9,748 bases of DNA. Source: a virus (taxonomy: Duplodnaviria; Heunggongvirae; Uroviricota; Caudoviricetes). The stretch's first letter is position 1. Each line of letters starts with the position of its first letter. A program made the position numbers and the translations under genes. The DNA lies in IMG/VR virus record IMGVR_UViG_2671180603_000017, positions 1 through 9,748 of that record, one strand, 5' to 3'. The notes below the pieces were generated by a model, which did not search any database, had not been told where the DNA came from, and saw only the letters and a program-made list of their open reading frames with translations. Positions 76-9,098 of the stretch are shown piece by piece.

Positions 76-627
76 TCAACAATGAATTTTGAGTAATTGT
101 TCCACAGTCATATTTTTAATTGCGCCCCGGTTAACAAGAGTCCATCCCTGTTTTTCCAGATAAAACCGGAAAGTCTCCAGGGGACAGACCAGTGCGCCAT
201 CAGGAACGGTTTCGGTGAATTCGACATTGCCGAATTTGTCGAAGTGAACAACCAGAGTGCGACCATCACCCGGAATCATCTTGTCAGCAGGTGGGGTGTT
301 ATTCTGGCGCAGTTCGGCCTCCATGCGGTCGAACTCAGCAATGTATGCCTCTTTGAATGCGGCGGCTTTTTTGCCCGTGAAGCCCATCACCAGGAAAACG
401 AAGCCGTTTTTGGTGATTTGGTACATTGGGAGTTTGCGCCCGATTGAGTCGGTGTATTCGCTCGCTTCAAAATTGAGGGCAGTAAATTTATCTGAGCATT
501 CAATATTTGCGATGGCACGTAACACATTGTCGTGTCGTTTGTGGAAGAACTCTGCAACCGCAACAGACGTAGTGACAGCGCGACCGTTTTCTACGGTTAC
601 ACAAGGGTGAGAAAGGGTAGTAGCCAT
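76..627 (-). CDS. Rha-family phage regulatory (antirepressor-like) protein, module copy 1; 183 aa from ATG 625-627; an in-frame upstream AUG at 718-720 would add 31 aa
   Basis: The track ORF 76..990 carries Rha-type motifs from memory (ENGRAVTTS..AEFF.KRHDNVLR, then YQITKNGFVFLVMGFTGKKAAAFKEAYIAEFDRMEAEL). The ATG at 625-627 is preceded by GGAGG with 8-nt spacing. The track's longer N-terminal extension runs through a promoter, a non-coding RNA and a terminator, so it is unlikely to be coding. Confidence 0.7.
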   Translation of the reverse strand: MATTLSHPCVTVENGRAVTTSVAVAEFFHKRHDNVLRAIANIECSDKFTALNFEASEYTDSIGRKLPMYQITKNGFVFLVMGFTGKKAAAFKEAYIAEFDRMEAELRQNNTPPADKMIPGDGRTLVVHFDKFGNVEFTETVPDGALVCPLETFRFYLEKQGWTLVNRGAIKNMTVEQLLKIHC

Positions 628-660
628 GATGGCAGCCTCCGCGATGAATTTGATTAACTC

Positions 661-690
661 ACCACCGGAGGTAGCAATCTCATGGGTGGT
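661..690 (-). promoter_or_regulatory. Leader hairpin (stem CUCACCACC/GGUGGUGAG) whose loop contains site B (GAUUGCUACC), a same-sense mimic of the small-RNA loop
   Basis: 9-bp stem; the loop sequence is identical to the sRNA loop core and therefore complementary to site A; covaries in copy 2. Confidence 0.45.
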
Positions 691-700
691 GAGACGTACA

Positions 701-714
701 GGGTTGCTACAACC
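701..714 (-). promoter_or_regulatory. Leader target site A (mRNA sense GGUUGUAGCAACCC), complementary to the small-RNA loop; sits just downstream of in-frame GUG/AUG at 723-718
   Basis: Ten base pairs with one bulged nucleotide against sRNA GGG(A)UUGCUAC; covaries with the sRNA loop in copy 2. Confidence 0.5.
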
Positions 715-793
715 GGTCATCACGGAACCCGGCCAGTCTTGCGACTGCCCCGCACGCCCCACCATAATTTGAATGTGGCTGTGCATTACGCAT

Positions 794-816
794 AAAAAAA
801 CCGCCTGAGCGCGGTT
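794..816 (-). terminator. Intrinsic terminator: 6-bp stem AACCGC/GCGGUU, 6-nt loop, U7 tract
   Basis: Hairpin followed by a U-run on the minus strand; the plus strand has no T-run after the stem, so it is unidirectional. The stem is short, so termination may be partial. Confidence 0.45.
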
Positions 817-870
817 ATGCGCCGTGAATGACTTCGGGGTAGCAATCCCGGCACCCGTTTTATGAGGTGC
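794..870 (-). ncRNA. Putative ~77-nt antisense-type small RNA (c4-like by analogy), copy 1; second hairpin CGGG-AUUGCUAC-CCCG
   Basis: Strong promoter immediately upstream, no AUG inside, two hairpins (GCACC/GGUGC and CGGG/CCCG), ending in a stem (AACCGC/GCGGUU) plus U7 terminator. The loop is complementary to leader site 701-714. Confidence 0.5.
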
Positions 871-876
871 AGGTGC

Positions 877-905
877 ACTATAATTCCACCCGTTCTGGTT
901 TTCAA
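877..905 (-). promoter_or_regulatory. Sigma70-type promoter for the small RNA and possibly read-through Rha mRNA: -35 TTGAAA (905-900), 17-bp spacer, -10 TATAGT (882-877)
   Basis: Near-consensus hexamers at optimal spacing, read directly on the minus strand; identical in copy 2. Confidence 0.5.
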
Positions 906-1044
906 TAGCTACATTCAACATTTTCTCTTTCCTTTCATCACCGAAGTGAACTTTGTTGATGCGGTGAATGCGGCTCAGCGCACGCGGCACAGTTAAAAAG
1001 CGATTAGTTCCCCCGTATCGGGTGGTTATGGGTTTCCCTGTATA

Positions 1045-2435: not shown

Positions 2436-2474
2436 TAGCTACATTCAACATTTTCTCTCACCTTTCATCACCGA

Positions 2475-2628
2475 AGTGAATTTTGTTGATGCGGTGCCTG
2501 GTGCCTCCAGGTGACGTTAACCAGTTAACAATTACAGTTGGCTTTCCCACCCAAACCAATAAGGACTAACATGACTTTTAACTGTGCCGCGTGCGCATAG
2601 CCGCATTCACCGCATCACAAAATTCACT
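2475..2628. repeat. 23-bp inverted repeat (AAGTGAATTTTGTTGATGCGGTG / CACCGCATCACAAAATTCACTT) flanking a ~107-bp spacer; right arm continues as an inverted copy of the copy 1 upstream sequence
   Basis: Direct comparison with copy 1 (941-1002) shows the distal segment is in opposite orientation in copy 2. Confidence 0.6.
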
Positions 2629-2865
2629 TTAAAAAGGGCGGACATCAGCCAGCAATTAAACCGATGCCGCCAACTGGTACTTCACACAGCAATGTCGTTA
2701 TTTACAACCGGAGGCGCACTCCCACCATTTAAATTTAACAGACAAGACCGACTCTTTATGGATACCGGAAATGCGCCTTCGTGTTGTGCCCGGTTTTATT
2801 TCACCACCTCCGGGCTTTGGTATGAGGTGTACTGGCAATAGCGGACACTACCATTTGTTCTTTTT

Positions 2866-4271
<1,406 letters not shown>

Positions 4272-4272
4272 G

Positions 4273-4575
4273 GTTCAGCAGATTTGGCGCAACTGGCAGA
4301 TTGTGGTTCGAGTTCGTAGTCGCTCTGAACTTGCGTTTCTGCTTACAGCGTAGCCTTAGCTCCTTACGAAGACGTGCCAGTCGGTCACGACCAACGATGA
4401 TGCCATTCTCTGCCAGCTCCGTCTGGAGCCGCCGGGTTCCATATGTTTCGCGAGTGCGGATATGTGCCACCTTAATCTCCAGTTTTAGCCGCTCATCACT
4501 TTGTTTTCTGTCTGAGGGTTCATGCTGTACCCAGTTGTAATAACCGCTCCTGGATACACCAAATACCTGACACAT
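4273..4575 (-). pseudogene. IS600-like OrfB N-terminal portion, interrupted at 4272 by the IS911-like terminus
   Basis: Track ORF 4198..4575 matches IS600-like OrfB (MCQVFGVSRSGYYNW...NLPVAPNLLN) and then diverges at the junction. Confidence 0.7.
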
Positions 4576-4610
4576 CGCTTCAATGGGAAATTGTTGTCGC
4601 CATTGTTCGA

Positions 4611-4913
4611 TTAACGCGTATTTTTCAGCGACTCCTGTGCAAAATACGCTGTTGCTTTTTTTAATATATCTCGCTCAAGGCGAGCTTCATTTAACGCCTT
4701 ACGCAGTTGCAGAATTTCAGATTCCAGTTCAGCCACCGTGCGGGAACCAGGAGTACCGAGCCCTTTTCTGGCGGCGGTAACCCATTGTCCTAAAGTGCCT
4801 TCAGGAAGAGATAATCGGGAAGCGCCTTCACTGATCGAAAGTTGATTTTCAGGAACCGTTCTGACAGCTTCGGCTTTGAACTCTTTAGAGTAACGTTGGG
4901 TTTTTCTGCTCAT
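4611..4913 (-). CDS. IS600-like OrfA (transposase N-terminal HTH and leucine-zipper protein, 100 aa)
   Basis: Track ORF MSRKTQRYSKEFKAEAVRTV...ILKKATAYFAQESLKNTR, typical IS3-family OrfA; followed by an overlapping orfB in the -1 frame. Confidence 0.8.
   Translation of the reverse strand: MSRKTQRYSKEFKAEAVRTVPENQLSISEGASRLSLPEGTLGQWVTAARKGLGTPGSRTVAELESEILQLRKALNEARLERDILKKATAYFAQESLKNTR
4655..4662 (-). promoter_or_regulatory. Programmed -1 ribosomal frameshift site (A AAA AAA G) joining orfA to orfB
   Basis: A7G run in the orfA frame (UUA AAA AAA GCA). The orfB frame is open from this point down to 4273 (read codon by codon), as in other IS3-family OrfAB fusions. Confidence 0.6.
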
Positions 4914-5023
4914 TATTAGCTCCTTCTGATGCCATTCTATTTCAGGAAGGAGTGTCCGTTAAACTCAGGCTACCTCAGTGGTATCTTTACTGAAGTTCTC
5001 ACACAACCAGTAAGGAAATGAAT

Positions 5024-5314
5024 ATGCCAACGTATCTCGCCAGAGTAGAACTATATAATGCTGAGCCAGAGGATTACGAAGGGCTTCATAAATATATGCT
5101 CTCACTAGGATTCAGGAGAACGATCCCCCATGGAGATGGTTCGTATAATCAACTCCCGGACGGAACTTATGTTTCCGAAAAGGGCGGTGATATTTATCAA
5201 ATTCGCAGCCAGATATCTGACTATGCAGACCGACTATCCAGGTATCGCGCGTCTGTTTTTGTTTGCGAATTCAGTCAATGCGCATGGTATTTATACCCCG
5301 CCAAGACCCGGTGA
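5024..5314 (+). CDS. Hypothetical protein, 96 aa (track ORF 5018..5314; second ATG favoured)
   Basis: AAGGAA Shine-Dalgarno 7 nt before ATG 5024; no recognisable family. Its 3' end overlaps the convergent gene 5291..5494 by 24 bp, so one of the two calls may be wrong. Confidence 0.35.
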   Translation: MPTYLARVELYNAEPEDYEGLHKYMLSLGFRRTIPHGDGSYNQLPDGTYVSEKGGDIYQIRSQISDYADRLSRYRASVFVCEFSQCAWYLYPAKTR

Positions 5315-5494
5315 ATATCCTGCACGGCCTTCTGCTTTGTAGAAGGCTTCTTCGCTATCATAATCGCCAGATTCCAGCGCTTCTTTAGCCAGCCAGATGC
5401 GTGCCCCAGTGCCTGCATTTGGCTCCAGTTGCTGGAGGCGTTTTGCATCTTCTAGGAGTAGAGCGATAACGTGTTTTAATTCTGTCTCGTTCAT
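5291..5494 (-). CDS. Hypothetical small acidic protein, 67 aa (MNETELKHVIALLLEDAKRL...)
   Basis: ATG 5494-5492 preceded by AGGTGA; start lies 4 nt after the stop of the upstream small gene (compact, possibly coupled). Confidence 0.45.
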   Translation of the reverse strand: MNETELKHVIALLLEDAKRLQQLEPNAGTGARIWLAKEALESGDYDSEEAFYKAEGRAGYSPGLGGV

Positions 5495-5495
5495 T

Positions 5496-5651
5496 TTACT
5501 CACCTGAATGTCTTCCCAACCAACGACGTGCGCCAGCTTCGGTTTTAAACGTTTTGCTTTTGGTATACGTCATGGCGGTGAATGTGCCGTCTTGATTGGG
5601 AAACACGCCACATACCAGAGATTCGTTGTTGCCAAGATCGATAGTATTCAT
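5496..5651 (-). CDS. Hypothetical small protein, 51 aa (MNTIDLGNNESLVCGVFPNQDG...)
   Basis: ATG at 5651-5649 with a G-rich Shine-Dalgarno upstream; first gene downstream of the leftward promoter at 5832-5860. The track ORF's TTG start at 5714 is unlikely. Confidence 0.45.
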   Translation of the reverse strand: MNTIDLGNNESLVCGVFPNQDGTFTAMTYTKSKTFKTEAGARRWLGRHSGE

Positions 5652-5831
5652 GTTGACCCCATTTCCCCTTAACGCCGGGTGGCGGAACGTTTTATCTACT
5701 GCGCTTTGTATCAATCAACAACTGCCGTCATGTTCGTATGCCTCAGGCTGGCTACTTAGCCCTGTTCAGTGACTGGATAACTCGAGGTATTGTCCTGCCG
5801 TTCTCTGGTGGGGCGTTGTTTGGATATGCTT

Positions 5832-5873
5832 ATTAAACACAATTTGTTTTCTTGTGTCAACACGCAACGTGTT
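5832..5873 (-). promoter_or_regulatory. Leftward (PL-like) promoter: -35 TTGACA (5860-5855), 17-bp spacer, -10 TTTAAT (5837-5832); overlapped by operator-like palindromes AACACGCAACGTGTT (5859-5873) and ACACAA-N9-TTGTGT (5837-5857)
   Basis: Hexamers and palindromes read directly; the half-site AACAC/GTGTT recurs in the divergent promoter region at 6434-6448. Confidence 0.45.
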
Positions 5874-5925: not shown

Positions 5926-5956
5926 TGATTGGCATATTACTGTGATAGCAAGATCA

Positions 5957-6376
5957 TTATTCCGGTGGGGGATTATCTTTAATCCTGCCTCTCAAATATT
6001 TTTCTACATACTCATCGATTTCTTTTAGCCGGACTTCAAATAGCTCAATCATTCGTTGTTGTTCTGAGCCCGGTAGCTGGTTAAACAACTCAAGAAGTTT
6101 TCGTTGGGATTCATTTAACCACAATTCAGAAGATTCCTGTTCTCCAAAGAGGAGCTCAGGAGGAGATATGCCAAGTGCCTTTCCCAATACGACAGCGTCA
6201 TGTACTCCAACATTTCTGCTGCCCGCCTCATAGTTACCTATACGCGATTGCGTCCATCCGCAGATTTCAGCAAGTTTTCCTTGAGATAAACCAAGCTTCT
6301 GCCTGCGCTCTTTAAGACGCATTGCAATTTTGTCATTGAGCCTACTAGCGGCAATTTTTTCGTTTTCTTTTTCCAT
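5957..6376 (-). CDS. Prophage repressor, HTH XRE family (DicA/CI-like), 139 aa
   Basis: HTH motif LGLSQGKLAEICGWTQSRIGNYEAG; a C-terminal segment (QRKLLELFNQLPGSEQQRMIELFE) resembles my recollection of DicA; divergently arranged with a Cro-like gene. Confidence 0.7.
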   Translation of the reverse strand: MEKENEKIAASRLNDKIAMRLKERRQKLGLSQGKLAEICGWTQSRIGNYEAGSRNVGVHDAVVLGKALGISPPELLFGEQESSELWLNESQRKLLELFNQLPGSEQQRMIELFEVRLKEIDEYVEKYLRGRIKDNPPPE

Positions 6377-6387
6377 TGCATCCTTGT

Positions 6388-6448
6388 ATCACGAATCGTG
6401 ATTTACATAAAACACAAAACAGCTTGGCTATATAACACAAGGTGTGTT
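6388..6448. promoter_or_regulatory. Divergent promoter/operator region: palindromes ATCACGA-A-TCGTGAT (6388-6402) and AACACAAGGTGTGTT (6434-6448)
   Basis: Perfect inverted repeats in the 96-bp intergenic region between the repressor and Cro-like genes; GGAGG Shine-Dalgarno at 6462-6466. Confidence 0.5.
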
Positions 6449-6472: not shown

Positions 6473-6715
6473 ATGAACAAAATTTCAACATATCGAAAAC
6501 AGCTTGGGCTGTCTCAAAGACAACTTGCTGTTCAGTTAGGGTGGATACAAAGCCGACTGGCAAATTACGAAGCAAATTTTCGTACCCCTGGACTAGAGGA
6601 GTGCAGAAAAATTGTTTCTACCCTTAATCGGCTTGGCGCTCATTGTGGACTTGACGATGTATTCCCCCCAGACGGTAAGCATAGCGAAAACAGCATAGGA
6701 GCGGTTGATTCATGA
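6473..6715 (+). CDS. Cro/YdaS-like HTH DNA-binding protein, 80 aa
   Basis: HTH motif LGLSQRQLAVQLGWIQSRLANYEAN, nearly the same recognition helix as the repressor; strong RBS; stop overlaps the next ATG (ATGA). Confidence 0.65.
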   Translation: MNKISTYRKQLGLSQRQLAVQLGWIQSRLANYEANFRTPGLEECRKIVSTLNRLGAHCGLDDVFPPDGKHSENSIGAVDS

Positions 6716-7133
6716 AAATCAGGCATGAGCACATCGAATCAGTGCTGTTGCCCTGGCAGCCGAAAAAGGGCAGGCGTGGGTCGCTAACGCAATTACTGAA
6801 GAATATCTGCGCCAGGGGGGCGGCGAATTGCCCCTTGTACCAGGCAAGGACTGGAACAATCAGCAGAATATCTATCACCGTTGGTTGAAAGGTGAAACGA
6901 AAGCGCAAAGGGAAAAAATTCAGAAACTGATCCCTGCGGTTCTGGCAATTCTTCCGCGTGAGCTGCGTCACCGACTCTGTATCTTCGATACCCTGGAACG
7001 CCGTGCATTACTGGCGGCGCAGGAAGCGTTGAGTACGGCAATTGATGCGCATGATGATGCAGTCCAGGCCGTTTACCGGAAAGCGCATTTCAGCGGCGGC
7101 GGGTCTTCCGACGATTCTGTCATTGTTCATTAA
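6712..7133 (+). pseudogene. ydaT: YdaT-like (Rac prophage) gene with an apparent 1-bp deletion frameshift near 6748-6752
   Basis: ATG 6712 is translationally coupled (ATGA) and encodes MKIRHEHIESVL, then hits a stop at 6886. The rest of the protein (AEKGQAWVANAITEEYLRQGGGELPLVPGKDWNN...SDDSVIVH) is in the -1 shifted frame (track ORF 6828..7133), which has no ATG or GTG start. Confidence 0.55.
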
Positions 7134-7196
7134 GCAAAAGTTTCCATGCTGTTTGTGCTTATTCTAAGCAACCGGGCAGCATCATACGGGGCAATT

Positions 7197-8345
7197 ATGG
7201 CCGCATTACCATACATGCAACTGTACATAGCTGATTACCTGGCTGACACCATGCATTTGTCAGCAGAGGAGCACGGCGCGTATTTGTTGCTGATGTTCAA
7301 TTACTGGCAAACAGGAAAGCCAATACCCAAAAACAGGTTGGCAAAAATTGCCCGTCTGACTAACGAGCGATGGGTTGATGTTGAACCATCCTTGCGGGAG
7401 TTTTTTTGTGATAACGGCGACGAATGGATGCATCTTCGGATTGAGGAAGATCTGGCATCTGTCAGAGAAAAATTAACCAAAAAATCAGCCGCAGGAAAAG
7501 CATCTGTTCAGGCCAGAAGAAGCAGAAAGGAAGCAGATGTTCAAACAAAACAAGAGAGAAATTTAACAGGTGTTCAAACAGATGTTGGAGTGATGTTCGA
7601 ACATGATGCCAACACAAAGGCAACTAATAAAGATACAGATAAAGATCTAAAAACAGATCTAACCCATCCCAAACCCTTCCCTTCCGGAAGGGAGTTTCGG
7701 GATTTTGTGGCTGGAGTGCTTGAGGGGAGATTATCTGGCGGTACTGCAGCGGAATTTTGTAATTCTGCGGTGGTTGCGTTGCAGGCTGCTGGCCTGGATG
7801 TCTGTCGTGAGTATCCGGTGCCAGAGCGTGGTGACGGTTGCGGAGGGCGGATTGATATCGTCGTGACTGACAGGAACGGTGTCCGGTGTGGGAGCGAGCT
7901 TGACCGAAATTCTCCGCGACAGAAATCACTGCTCAAAATCGGTGCTGTTGAAACCGGGATATGTGTCTTGCGGCGCAGTGATATCGCAAGGCACACCGAG
8001 CAGGGAATTCTGGTTATCGGTGGGGCTGTTCGCCAGAAAAAATTTGACCCGTTGTCAGTTGATCTGCCCGACTGGTTGCCAGAAACACTCTGGCATGAGT
8101 GGGTCCAGTTCAGGCAGGCATTGCGAAAACCGATTCGAACGGAGCAGGGCGCTAACGGGGCGATACGGGAACTGGAAAAATTCCGTCAGCAGGGTTTTAC
8201 ACCTGAGCAGGTGATTCGACACAGCATCGCCAATGAATACCAGGGTCTGTTCGCGCCGAAAGGTGTTCGGCCTGAGACGTTGCTCCGACAGGTTAACACC
8301 GTCTCGTTGCCGGACAGTGCGATCCCGCCAGGCTTCAGGGGGTAA
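7197..8345 (+). CDS. YdaU-like phage replication protein (N-terminal DUF1376-type domain, charged linker, C-terminal domain), 382 aa; alternative start 7146
   Basis: Track ORF 7146..8345; the internal ATG 7197 has a G-rich Shine-Dalgarno; N-terminus MAALPYMQLYIADYLADTMHLSAEEHGAYLLLMFNYW; positioned directly upstream of a DnaC-like gene. Confidence 0.6.
   Translation: MAALPYMQLYIADYLADTMHLSAEEHGAYLLLMFNYWQTGKPIPKNRLAKIARLTNERWVDVEPSLREFFCDNGDEWMHLRIEEDLASVREKLTKKSAAGKASVQARRSRKEADVQTKQERNLTGVQTDVGVMFEHDANTKATNKDTDKDLKTDLTHPKPFPSGREFRDFVAGVLEGRLSGGTAAEFCNSAVVALQAAGLDVCREYPVPERGDGCGGRIDIVVTDRNGVRCGSELDRNSPRQKSLLKIGAVETGICVLRRSDIARHTEQGILVIGGAVRQKKFDPLSVDLPDWLPETLWHEWVQFRQALRKPIRTEQGANGAIRELEKFRQQGFTPEQVIRHSIANEYQGLFAPKGVRPETLLRQVNTVSLPDSAIPPGFRG
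7536..7660. other. Putative replication origin inside the YdaU-like gene: three 12-bp iteron-like repeats G(A/G)TGTTC(A/G)AACA at 7536, 7569 and 7592, then an AT-rich segment with two GATC sites (7621-7660)
   Basis: Repeats read directly; they fall in the low-complexity linker coding region, as the lambda origin does within gene O. Confidence 0.35.
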
Positions 8346-8351
8346 CAGACC

Positions 8352-9098
8352 ATGAAAAATATTGCGACAGGAGGCGTTCTGGAGCGTATCCGCAGACTGA
8401 CCCCACCACATGTAACCGCCCCATTCAGAACGGTTGCGGAGTGGCGCGAGTGGCAACTTGCTGAAGGCCAGAAACGTTGCGAGGAGATCAACCGCCTGAA
8501 TCGTCAGTTGCGGGTGGAAAAAATCCTGAACCGCTCCGGCATCCAGCCGTTGCACCGGAAGTGTTCGTTTGCGAATTACCGGGCGCAGAACGACGGTCAG
8601 CGACATGCACTGAGTCAGGCGAAATCCATAGCTGACGAACTGATGACAGGCTGTACGAATTTTGTGTTCAGCGGTAAGCCCGGCACCGGAAAAAATCATC
8701 TTGCAGACGCGATTGGCAACCGGCTGATGGCGAAGGGGCGTAGCGTGATTATCGTCACCGTGTCCGATGTCATGAGCGTGTTGCATGAGAGCTACGACAA
8801 CGGCAAATCCGGTGAAAAATTTTTACAGGAGCTTTGTGGTGTTGACCTGCTGGTCCTGGATGAAATTGGCATGCAGCGGGATACGAAAAACGAGCAGGTG
8901 GTACTGAACCAGATTGTTGATCGCCGGACGGCATCGTTACGCGGTGTGGGGATGCTGACAAATATTAACCATGCAGCGATGAATACACTTCTCGGCGAGC
9001 GGGTGATGGATCGCATGGTCATGAACGGCGGGCGCTGGGTGAATTTTAACTGGGAGAGCTGGCGTCCGAATGTTAGCCATTCGAGGGTTGTTAAGTAG
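8352..9098 (+). CDS. ydaV: DnaC/IstB-like AAA+ helicase loader (YdaV-like replication protein), 248 aa
   Basis: Walker A GKPGTGKNHLA and Walker B LLVLDEIG; position after the replication-initiator-like gene; close to my recollection of Rac YdaV. Confidence 0.75.
   Translation: MKNIATGGVLERIRRLTPPHVTAPFRTVAEWREWQLAEGQKRCEEINRLNRQLRVEKILNRSGIQPLHRKCSFANYRAQNDGQRHALSQAKSIADELMTGCTNFVFSGKPGTGKNHLADAIGNRLMAKGRSVIIVTVSDVMSVLHESYDNGKSGEKFLQELCGVDLLVLDEIGMQRDTKNEQVVLNQIVDRRTASLRGVGMLTNINHAAMNTLLGERVMDRMVMNGGRWVNFNWESWRPNVSHSRVVK

Follow-up and report, generated by a model that had tools for sequence, protein, structure and literature searches.

The described systems closest to the locus analyzed here are the repressor-proximal regions of the prophages Qin, e14, and Rac, together with the GhoS protein. 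In Qin (dicA–dicBp–ydfA–ydfB–ydfC–dicF–dicB), the repressor gene is followed by a repressed promoter, a first cistron of the DUF1391 family, a second small gene starting 1 nt past the DUF1391 stop codon and, further along the same transcript, the sRNA DicF and dicB; none of the genes in this operon is counter-oriented. When dicBp was derepressed in a dicB dicF double mutant, ydfABC were still made and neither filamentation nor growth inhibition occurred (PMC10448788). Comparing Rac, e14, and Qin brings out a convergent gene pair adjoining the repressor, namely sieB/ydaF in Rac—where SieB is a hydrophobic membrane protein of 162 aa—and ymfI/ymfJ in e14, next to the repressor gene ymfK (cohE). 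Both K-12 pairs have been catalogued as excludons with overlapping transcripts (PMC12288877) and, during the SOS response, ymfJ is strongly induced late and ymfI far more weakly (PMC11002266). GhoS (YjdK; PF11080, formerly DUF2622) adopts a beta-alpha-beta-beta-alpha-beta ferredoxin-like fold, is encoded with ghoT in a co-directional chromosomal operon and, according to one report, becomes a toxin upon acquiring two mutations (PMC4010927). For ymfI, ymfJ, ydfA/ydaF, or DUF2622, our literature search found no functional study.

The window—the whole stretch of 9,748 nucleotides analyzed here (IMG/VR record IMGVR_UViG_2671180603_000017)—carries three small genes between positions 5024 and 5651, two of them on the minus strand (genes A and B) and one convergent to these on the plus strand (gene C). 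A first-pass annotation, made from the sequence alone, had called all three ORFs with the correct coordinates, sizes, and strands but had recognized none of them; profile-HMM searches and alignments now reveal homologues of YdfA/YdaF (gene A), YmfJ (gene B), and YmfI (gene C). These matches mark all three as real genes from named but functionally uncharacterized prophage families. We hold it to be reasonably probable that the region represents the early-left operon start of a Rac/Qin/e14-type lambdoid prophage, probably of a Shigella host, with gene C as a counter-oriented gene expressed in the lysogen. This outcome is largely ordinary, in that three "unknown" ORFs enter named families and previous ideas of toxicity and truncation are set aside. 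Gene C is conserved and under purifying selection, yet the E. coli RefSeq genomes listed have no annotated feature at its position.

Leftward promoter and the first two cistrons

A gene for a DicA-like HTH repressor (5957–6376, minus strand; a Pfam HTH_3 match, with the NCBIfam DicA model scoring below its cutoff) is followed by an intrinsic terminator found in the sequence at 5926–5908. Beyond it, we read a PL/dicBp-like promoter on the minus strand (5832–5873), composed of a –35 box TTGACA (5860–5855), a 17-nt spacer, and a –10 box TTTAAT (5837–5832), with two operators at 5836–5850 and 5859–5873. The operator motif, AACACR-N3-YGTGTT, is present in three copies (the third at 6434–6448) as compared to 0.06 expected by chance, bearing out the initial proposal that the leftward promoter is operator-controlled and that the cluster forms the promoter-proximal part of a repressor-controlled leftward operon. 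The genes had also been described as lying directly downstream of this promoter; in fact, a leader of ~180 nt (5652–5831, minus strand) separates its –10 box from the ATG of gene A. This leader is 76% identical to the racR–ydaG intergenic region of Rac and 87% identical to Qin over the 40 nt before ydfA.

Gene A (5496–5651, minus strand; 51 aa; ATG at 5651, TAA stop at 5498–5496) matches the Pfam family DUF1391 (PF07151) over model positions 2–47/48 with 99.9 bits (E = 5.8e-29; cutoff 27.3), and also matches phrog_751. It is 90% identical to YdfA of Qin in E. coli K-12 and 88% identical to YdaF of Rac, and PGAP labels its equivalent in related prophages as a DUF1391 family protein. As with the DUF1391 cistron of Qin, gene A comes first past an operator-flanked promoter that adjoins a DicA-like repressor; it is the orthologue of YdfA/YdaF and heads the leftward operon. 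A fold search with the DUF1391 model returned weak matches at best (Z no higher than 4.1). We also considered DUF1391 as a homologue of SHP, the head-decoration protein of phage 21, and rejected this relationship because the local similarity, spanning 22 residues (E = 0.009), is too short; the same similarity probably accounts for the mislabelling of DUF1391 in some phage records.

A single nucleotide separates the stop codon of gene A from gene B (5291–5494, minus strand; 67 aa; ATG at 5494, TAA stop at 5293–5291), and the first-pass figure of 4 nt from stop to start holds if counted from the first base of the stop codon. This spacing is identical to that of ydfA and ydfB in Qin and, because it amounts to 1 nt, suggests that gene B is translationally coupled to gene A. 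Unlike in Qin, however, the second gene carries a YmfJ-type module rather than YdfB: residues 1–44 constitute the YmfJ N-terminal module, with 81% identity to residues 1–42 of YmfJ and with the invariant columns of the ~44-aa signature (MNE..LKHVIALLLEDAKRLQQ.EPNAGTEARI) kept. Assignments of gene B to YdfB or YdaG were ruled out, as there is no similarity to either.

Two features set this part of the locus apart from e14, namely the DUF1391 gene between the repressor and gene B and the absence from gene B of the YmfJ C-terminal domain (PLPC...RVYHDTMVKALRIELDGLRRKIV). Where the conserved pattern of that domain (PLPC..G..V.RVYH[DE]TMVKALRIELDGLRRKIV) would be expected, residues 45–67 instead form an unrelated 23-aa tail (DYDSEEAFYKAEGRAGYSPGLGGV), which is encoded antisense to the right-hand end of the cassette that holds gene C. 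Over its full length, gene B matches phrog_30817, whereas phrog_12693, phrog_2982, and phrog_32391 match its N-terminus only. The 124 database relatives of the module range from 36 to 116 aa and combine many invariant columns with variable tails, and many members of the family consist of the ~44–50-aa N-terminal module alone.

IS600/IS911 insertion and the state of the locus

An IS600/IS911 composite occupies positions 2823–4977 and, by blastn against the intact locus L001, resolves into IS600 (2823–3594 and 4266–4977) and IS911 (3596–4273). The IS600 end had been placed correctly at 4977 in the first-pass annotation, which went on to suggest that the insertion may have cost the operon its remaining part. 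This is not so: because intact E. coli prophages join window position 2821 directly to 4978, the composite is a simple insertion and the rest of the operon was not removed. The operon resumes leftward at 2821 with a KilS/DicF-like sRNA (2636–2686, minus strand; terminator at 2668–2641), isrK, C4, and a Rha-type antirepressor. The sRNA scores 28.6 bits against the Rfam DicF model, below the gathering score of 48, and its region is 92% identical to the kilS region of Rac and 80% identical to the dicF region of Qin; before the IS insertion, it formed a downstream part of the leftward operon. A DicF-like sRNA further along the same transcript is a trait shared with Qin, whose downstream gene is dicB in place of the Rha antirepressor, C4, and isrK.

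Besides interrupting the leftward operon, the composite splits the promoter spacer of gene C. In L001, TTCACC (8981–8986) and TATCTT (9005–9010) are separated by an 18-nt spacer; in the window, the original predicted –35 box TTCACC (2800–2805, plus strand) has been displaced by 2.1 kb from the putative extended –10 element TGgTATCTT (4979–4987, plus strand). These elements are part of a ~65-nt block—TTCACC, 16–18 nt, TGgTAT(C/G)(T/C)T, and a UTR with AAGGA—that is kept upstream of both gene C-type and ymfI-type cassettes, including ymfI of e14, although the two types of protein are just 26% identical. A consensus sigma-70 promoter scan of the intact locus found no site ahead of gene C, the –10 sequence TATCTT falling below the scan threshold, and the promoter that we infer for gene C therefore rests on the conservation across cassettes and on an extended –10 read by eye. 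In the window, this element now adjoins the IS600 end.

Such a setting invites the view that the cluster is a non-functional remnant, with gene B a truncated YmfJ pseudogene, gene C silenced by the IS, and genes A and B mere passengers of a cryptic prophage riddled with IS elements. Indeed, PGAP labels the equivalent of gene B in related prophages a pseudogene that lacks its C-terminus—the very domain that is gone here—and IS600 parts the –35 from the –10 of the gene C promoter, amid surroundings that have decayed (a frameshifted ydaT, a duplicated Rha/C4/isrK block, and IS fragments). Yet all three ORFs are intact, and gene B keeps its 67-aa form across E. coli and Shigella as well as in a variant with 78% identity, within a family rich in members reduced to the N-terminal module. 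Likewise, IS-free prophages carry an identical gene C, and the predicted extended –10 retained beside the IS end could still fire. We consider it rather unlikely that the cluster is a mere remnant; for the copy in this window, an IS lying in the gene C promoter spacer and across the operon would probably mean that the module is deregulated or decaying.

Gene C, the sieB slot, and the GhoS superfamily

Gene C (5024–5314, plus strand; 96 aa; ATG at 5024, TGA at 5312–5314) has an AAGGA ribosome-binding site that suits the ATG at 5024 better than one at 5018, and overlaps gene B convergently by the 24 bp already noted in the first pass (5291–5314). It matches phrog_8894 (E = 3.5e-38) and scores 52.9 bits (E = 4.1e-14) against the NCBIfam equivalog YmfI_phage (NF051477), below the cutoff of 140, while hhalign aligns it to YmfI over 93 columns with a probability of 97.6% (E = 3e-12). 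The genomic arrangement of e14 recurs as well, with a leftward YmfJ N-terminal module, a convergent overlapping gene of the YmfI family, and the common upstream block; the overlap comprises 24 nt in the window versus 63 nt in e14. An AF2 model of moderate confidence (pLDDT 77) shows a beta-alpha-beta-beta-alpha-beta topology. Taken together, gene C is a diverged YmfI homologue, predicted to be a soluble ferredoxin-like protein, on the fringe of the GhoS/DUF2622 superfamily.

The position of gene C corresponds to that of sieB in Rac. Window positions 2474–2821, joined to 4978, match Rac at 92% identity until 72 bp short of sieB; the opposite side is taken by a DUF1391 gene; and gene C has the same reversed orientation and convergent 3′ overlap as sieB. 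Gene C is a swappable cassette in the slot taken by sieB in Rac and by ymfI in e14. The earlier remark that the cluster sits where lambdoid phages carry kil or sieB accordingly stands for gene C as regards the slot and the orientation; it does not extend to the proteins, none of which matched Kil, KilR, or SieB.

It had been argued from this position that small early-left genes act as host-killing, host-takeover, or exclusion toxins in the manner of Kil or SieB. The genes do adjoin the leftward promoter, gene C does fill the sieB slot, and toxic functions (DicB, DicF, and KilR) do occur in such operons. However, none of the three proteins matched Pfam Lambda_Kil or KilR at E values up to 0.1 or resembled SieB (blastp E = 11 for gene C), and searches against the defense models of PADLOC-DB v2 gave as their sole match that of gene A to AbiEi at chance level (E = 0.054). 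All three proteins are hydrophilic and free of hydrophobic segments, with 19-residue Kyte–Doolittle maxima below 0.6 (0.56 for gene C) against 2.19 for SieB. In related prophages, kilR/Kil is a separate gene further downstream—in one of them (L002), kilR lies immediately left of the slot—and expression of Qin ydfABC, whose YdfA is the 90%-identical counterpart of gene A, proved harmless (PMC10448788). On sequence grounds, none of genes A, B, and C is Kil or SieB, and we regard host toxicity as an improbable explanation of the cluster.

Similarly improbable, in our estimate, is that gene C acts as a GhoS-type (type V) antitoxin endoribonuclease, cutting toxic leftward or antisense RNA and forming a toxin–antitoxin-like pair with its convergent partner. 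What brings GhoS into play is a similar size and the predicted fold of gene C, the annotation of its Salmonella homologues as DUF2622 proteins, and the behavior of its relatives, 50 out of 82 of which match Pfam GhoS (PF11080) at E values up to 1, with P0152 (27.2 bits), P0167 (22.5 bits), and P0140 (22.2 bits) passing the gathering score of 21. A convergent partner ORF is moreover present in every case, its C-terminal part co-varying with the cassette type, and the report that two mutations make GhoS a toxin (PMC4010927) would sit well with such a pairing. Gene C itself, by contrast, has no match to Pfam GhoS at E values up to 1 and stays below the 21-bit threshold, hhalign of its family with E. 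coli GhoS gives just 23% probability, and a solved-structure sequence search with gene C profiles returned chance matches alone, without recovering GhoS. The residues that are invariant (R7, Y18, and Y49) or nearly invariant (E9 and H22) in the gene C family appear unmatched in GhoS when the hhalign alignment is read by eye. Nor is there a GhoT-like hydrophobic peptide or an adjoining, downstream co-directional ghoT-like toxin gene: the partners are hydrophilic, with mutually unrelated N-terminal modules, and gene C is convergent and prophage-borne whereas ghoS/ghoT are co-directional and chromosomal. That gene C might bind or cleave RNA is no more than a guess.

That gene C is a spurious ORF antisense to a longer leftward gene, as the lack of a PGAP feature under the cassette in 12 records listed of the 19 E. 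coli carriers might suggest, is effectively refuted by purifying selection (deduced from a dN/dS of 0.12–0.32 across relatives that are 57–87% identical), by the 938 cluster representatives matching its profile, by the moderately confident fold, by the conserved ribosome-binding site and upstream block, by the DUF2622 annotation in Salmonella, and by the fact that no opposite-strand gene spans 5024–5290.

Proposed regulation and spread of the gene C cassette

Returning to the favored reading of an early-left operon start with a lysogen-expressed gene C, the DicA-like repressor, bound to the two operators, would keep leftward transcription from this promoter silent in the lysogen. Once derepressed, this promoter would drive the translationally coupled genes A and B, the latter having presumably gained its tail by reading into the neighboring gene C cassette. 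Gene C, for its part, would most likely behave as a lysogeny accessory gene (or "moron"), transcribed from its own extended –10 promoter during repression of the prophage. Upon induction, convergent and overlapping leftward transcription would silence it, amounting to an excludon arrangement as reported for ymfI/ymfJ (PMC12288877). Given its position, the most plausible role for gene C is superinfection exclusion or another benefit to the lysogen, possibly via RNA binding or cleavage.

The mobile unit is a cassette of ~350 bp (4990–5339), which starts within the promoter/UTR block, includes the 3′ portion of that block and all of gene C, and runs on for 25 nt beyond the gene. It is the sole stretch that the window has in common with the Salmonella prophage loci L016–L018 (89% identity), and it is found in 19 of 5,426 complete E. 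coli genomes, with no annotated feature at this site in any of the 12 records listed. A 10-bp hairpin 3′ of gene C (z = –2.0), lying across the cassette boundary, was set aside as an intrinsic terminator owing to its weak U tract and its lack of conservation in Salmonella.

Beyond the enterobacterial prophages, Pseudomonas phage Cruim01 encodes a gene C homologue downstream of a C2 repressor, with an identical 24-nt convergent overlap, and homologues in Ralstonia and Burkholderia phages are likewise counter-oriented. When 24 loci were surveyed by crude ORF calls and read by eye, most homologues were convergent with their right-hand neighbor. Across temperate phages of several genera, gene C relatives thus appear to be mostly lone, counter-oriented genes. 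Because YmfI/DUF2622-type genes recur as such cassettes, with a conserved promoter block and in the sieB position of Rac, and because gene C is conserved, K-12 ymfI and its relatives are reasonable candidates for an exclusion function expressed in the lysogen.

A bolder synthesis, to which we assign a low though not negligible probability, would regard the interval from the first early-left genes to kil as an allelic hotspot at which lambdoid and other temperate phages swap counter-transcribed lysogeny cassettes (sieB, ymfI, and gene C), with the conserved promoter block marking one boundary and small early-gene modules marking the opposite one. YmfI/DUF2622 proteins would then be widespread, unrecognized RNA-targeting exclusion or defense factors, whose expression is gated by convergent early transcription and whose activity the overlapping partner adjusts through its co-varying C-terminal part.

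The partner proteins carry N-terminal modules that are unlike one another between contexts. The common reading frame of their tails could come from shared descent, not function. A profile scan of genome contigs with close gene C relatives yielded four loci. In a Citrobacter prophage, the gene C homologue and its convergent partner are flanked by the genes for the Q antiterminator and a holin.

Gene families in the 5024–5651 cluster

The three ORFs proposed by the first-pass annotation were all confirmed on sequence check, coordinates included: gene A (minus strand, ATG at 5651 to TAA at 5498–5496; 51 aa), gene B (minus strand, ATG at 5494 to TAA at 5293–5291; 67 aa), and gene C (plus strand, ATG at 5024 to TGA at 5312–5314; 96 aa). 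A single nucleotide separates the gene A stop codon from the gene B ATG, and genes B and C converge with a 24-bp overlap (5291–5314). The same annotation had recognized none of these genes; profile and sequence comparison instead returned YdfA/YdaF, YmfJ, and YmfI homologs, and we assign all three to known, named—albeit uncharacterized—families. None of the three proteins contains a hydrophobic stretch.

Gene A scored 99.9 bits against Pfam PF07151 (DUF1391; cutoff 27.3) and is accordingly classified as a DUF1391 protein, 90% identical to YdfA of the E. coli K-12 prophage Qin and 88% to YdaF of Rac. Its family has a narrow range (Escherichia, Shigella, and Salmonella only; 73–98% identity). 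Residues 18–39 (window 5535–5600) form a 22-residue DUF1391 motif (P..DGTFTAMTYTKSKTFKTEA) that also occurs in the phage 21 head-decoration protein SHP (PDB 1TD0; E 0.009); this motif probably explains the ‘head-DNA stabilization protein D’ labels on the DUF1391 gene in some phage records.

Gene B, whose residues 1–42 are 81% identical to YmfJ of the K-12 prophage e14, is by this similarity a bearer of the ~44-aa YmfJ N-terminal module, without the C-terminal domain of YmfJ. Its 124 database relatives (36–116 aa) share nearly invariant first ~44 residues, followed by mutually unrelated tails, and PGAP labels the equivalent gene in E. coli prophages a C-terminally truncated pseudogene.

We class gene C as a new, divergent YmfI-family protein, with 26% identity to e14 YmfI (blastp, E 4e-7), a 97.6% probability for its family profile against YmfI (hhalign), and 52.9 bits against NCBIfam YmfI_phage, under the cutoff of 140. 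Homologs 57–87% identical were found in Salmonella, Citrobacter, and metagenomes; since dN/dS across them was 0.12–0.32 and an exhaustive search with the family profile matched 938 cluster representatives, gene C is a real gene. The AlphaFold model (pLDDT 77) predicts a ferredoxin-like beta-alpha-beta-beta-alpha-beta fold, and R7, Y18, and Y49 are invariant within the family, with E9 and H22 nearly so. At E up to 1, Pfam GhoS (formerly DUF2622) matched 50 of the 82 family members, and three tested relatives scored above its threshold; gene C itself gave no match to Pfam GhoS, and hhalign of the family against E. coli GhoS returned a probability of 23%.

A counter-oriented cassette in the sieB slot

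In Qin, the gene order is dicA, dicBp, ydfA, ydfB (starting 1 nt past the ydfA stop), and dicF; Rac carries racR, ydaG, and ydaF, with sieB convergent to and overlapping ydaF, and e14 carries ymfK and ymfJ, with ymfI convergent (63-nt overlap). In the window, gene C has on its left a flank matching Rac to 72 bp before sieB and on its right the DUF1391 gene, which places it in the sieB slot; its reversed orientation is also that of sieB. Pseudomonas phage Cruim01 encodes a 37%-identical homolog downstream of its C2 repressor, likewise counter-oriented with a 24-nt convergent overlap, and Ralstonia phage Dina and Burkholderia phage Magia also have homologs convergent with the neighboring gene block. 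A survey of 24 loci, crude and ORF-based, with counts read from noisy ORF calls, showed most homologs to be convergent with their right-hand neighbor and many to be lone plus-strand genes inside minus-strand blocks.

The sequence common to the window and Salmonella prophages is confined to 4990–5339 (89% identity), a ~350-bp cassette holding gene C. All contexts examined have a leftward ORF that terminates within or adjoining the 3′ end of the gene C/ymfI homolog. Across contexts, these partner ORFs have unrelated N-terminal modules (YmfJ-N, MEF.ELP, YdfC-like, MKFNELS, and MNLSTDV types), and their C-terminal parts co-vary with cassette type: ‘...AEGR(A/S)G.S.GLG.V’ with gene C-type cassettes and a ~45-aa domain, ‘PLPC...RVYHDTMVKALRIELDGLRRKIV’, with ymfI-type cassettes. 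The pair in a Citrobacter prophage occupies a classical moron site, flanked by the Q antiterminator and the holin. Among complete E. coli RefSeq genomes, 19 of 5426 carry the cassette, with its ORF intact and under purifying selection; in the 12 records listed of these 19 carriers, no annotated feature lies under it. Interest in the locus, low to moderate, lies mainly in this conserved counter-oriented architecture and in the lack of annotation. Position in the sieB slot, cassette behavior, and a ferredoxin-like fold with conserved Arg, Glu, His, and Tyr together suggest a lysogen-benefit function for gene C, e.g., exclusion or RNA-level regulation.

Both gene C-type and ymfI-type cassettes, whose proteins are 26% identical, retain a ~65-nt upstream block (TTCACC, 16–18 nt, TGgTAT(C/G)(T/C)T, AGTTCTCACACA.CCAG.AAGGAAA, ATG), which we infer to be a putative extended –10 promoter plus a ~30-nt 5′ UTR; a strict consensus promoter scan does not flag it. 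Conservation of this block (window 2800–2821 plus 4978–5023; 3430–3497 in comparison locus L004) is far above that of the downstream coding sequences. It also holds a short inverted repeat, ACCAC(C)...GGTGGT, inside which IS600 has inserted.

Leftward transcription and the question of toxicity

The leftward promoter, as read from the sequence (minus strand; TTGACA at 5860–5855, 17-nt spacer, TTTAAT at 5837–5832), is overlaid by two copies of the palindrome AACACR-N3-YGTGTT (5836–5850 and 5859–5873). A third copy (6434–6448) lies in the divergent promoter region, giving three in the window versus 0.06 expected by chance. The DicA-like repressor gene (5957–6376) ends at a clear intrinsic terminator. 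A leader of ~180 nt connects the leftward promoter to gene A; this stretch (5652–5831) is 76% conserved with Rac despite a different first gene (ydaG in Rac versus DUF1391 in the window).

In a lysogen, repressor on both leftward operators would keep genes A and B silent, and gene C would be transcribed from its own putative promoter. Upon derepression, leftward transcription would express genes A and B, translationally coupled, before proceeding antisense through gene C; convergent transcription and the formation of duplex RNA would then suppress gene C. This model fits three published observations: ymfI–ymfJ and sieB–ydaF are listed as K-12 excludon pairs (PMC12288877); in the late SOS response ymfJ is strongly induced and YmfJ protein detected, whereas ymfI induction is far weaker (PMC11002266); and dicBp, repressed by DicA, drives the ydfABC-dicF transcript (PMC10448788).

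The suspicion that the small genes are toxic was not borne out. Genes A, B, and C showed no similarity to Kil, KilR, or SieB and no match in a PADLOC search. Moreover, a Qin dicB dicF double mutant with the operon derepressed and ydfABC expressed displayed neither filamentation nor growth inhibition (PMC10448788); the near-identical homolog of gene A is therefore non-toxic at native expression levels. Of the first-pass interpretation, the position stood in part, gene C occupying the Rac sieB slot, but gene identity, toxicity, and the effect of the IS did not.

The IS composite and neighboring rearrangements

In two related E. coli prophages that are intact (L001, L002), window position 2821 adjoins 4978 directly; therefore, 2823–4977 is an IS600/IS911 composite insertion without truncation, and the operon, rather than having been cut away by IS600 as first thought possible, continues leftward. 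The composite separates the putative –35 element of gene C, displaced to 2800–2805, from its putative extended –10 element (4979–4987). It comprises 5′ 772 bp of IS600, a 678-bp IS911 piece (3596–4273), and 3′ 712 bp of IS600; a 220-bp overlap is shared between the IS600 parts.

Past the IS, the operon contains a KilS/DicF-like sRNA (2636–2686, minus strand), then isrK and C4, then a Rha-type antirepressor; L002 has kilR, ydaE, and recET instead. The sRNA candidate, 92% identical to the Rac kilS region and 80% to the Qin dicF region, scored 28.6 bits, below the Rfam threshold of 48, and has its own terminator (2668–2641). Two copies of the Rha/antirepressor-like gene (76–990 and 1564–2451), each accompanied by upstream C4 antisense RNA and isrK, are divided by an inverted 566-bp IS600 fragment (1045–1610). 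Window 92–966 and 1611–2821 both match one L001 stretch, and the doubled block suggests an IS-mediated duplication or rearrangement.

Elsewhere in the window, a ydaT homolog is apparently frameshifted (ORFs 6712–6888 and 6828–7133); ydaT is intact in L001 (423 nt; 10735–11157). The DUF1376 replication-protein ORF (7146–8345) encodes 399 aa versus 285 aa for Rac YdaU, with the DUF1376 match confined to the first ~104 residues; L002 has two pseudogene fragments here, and the ORF may be a fusion or mosaic.
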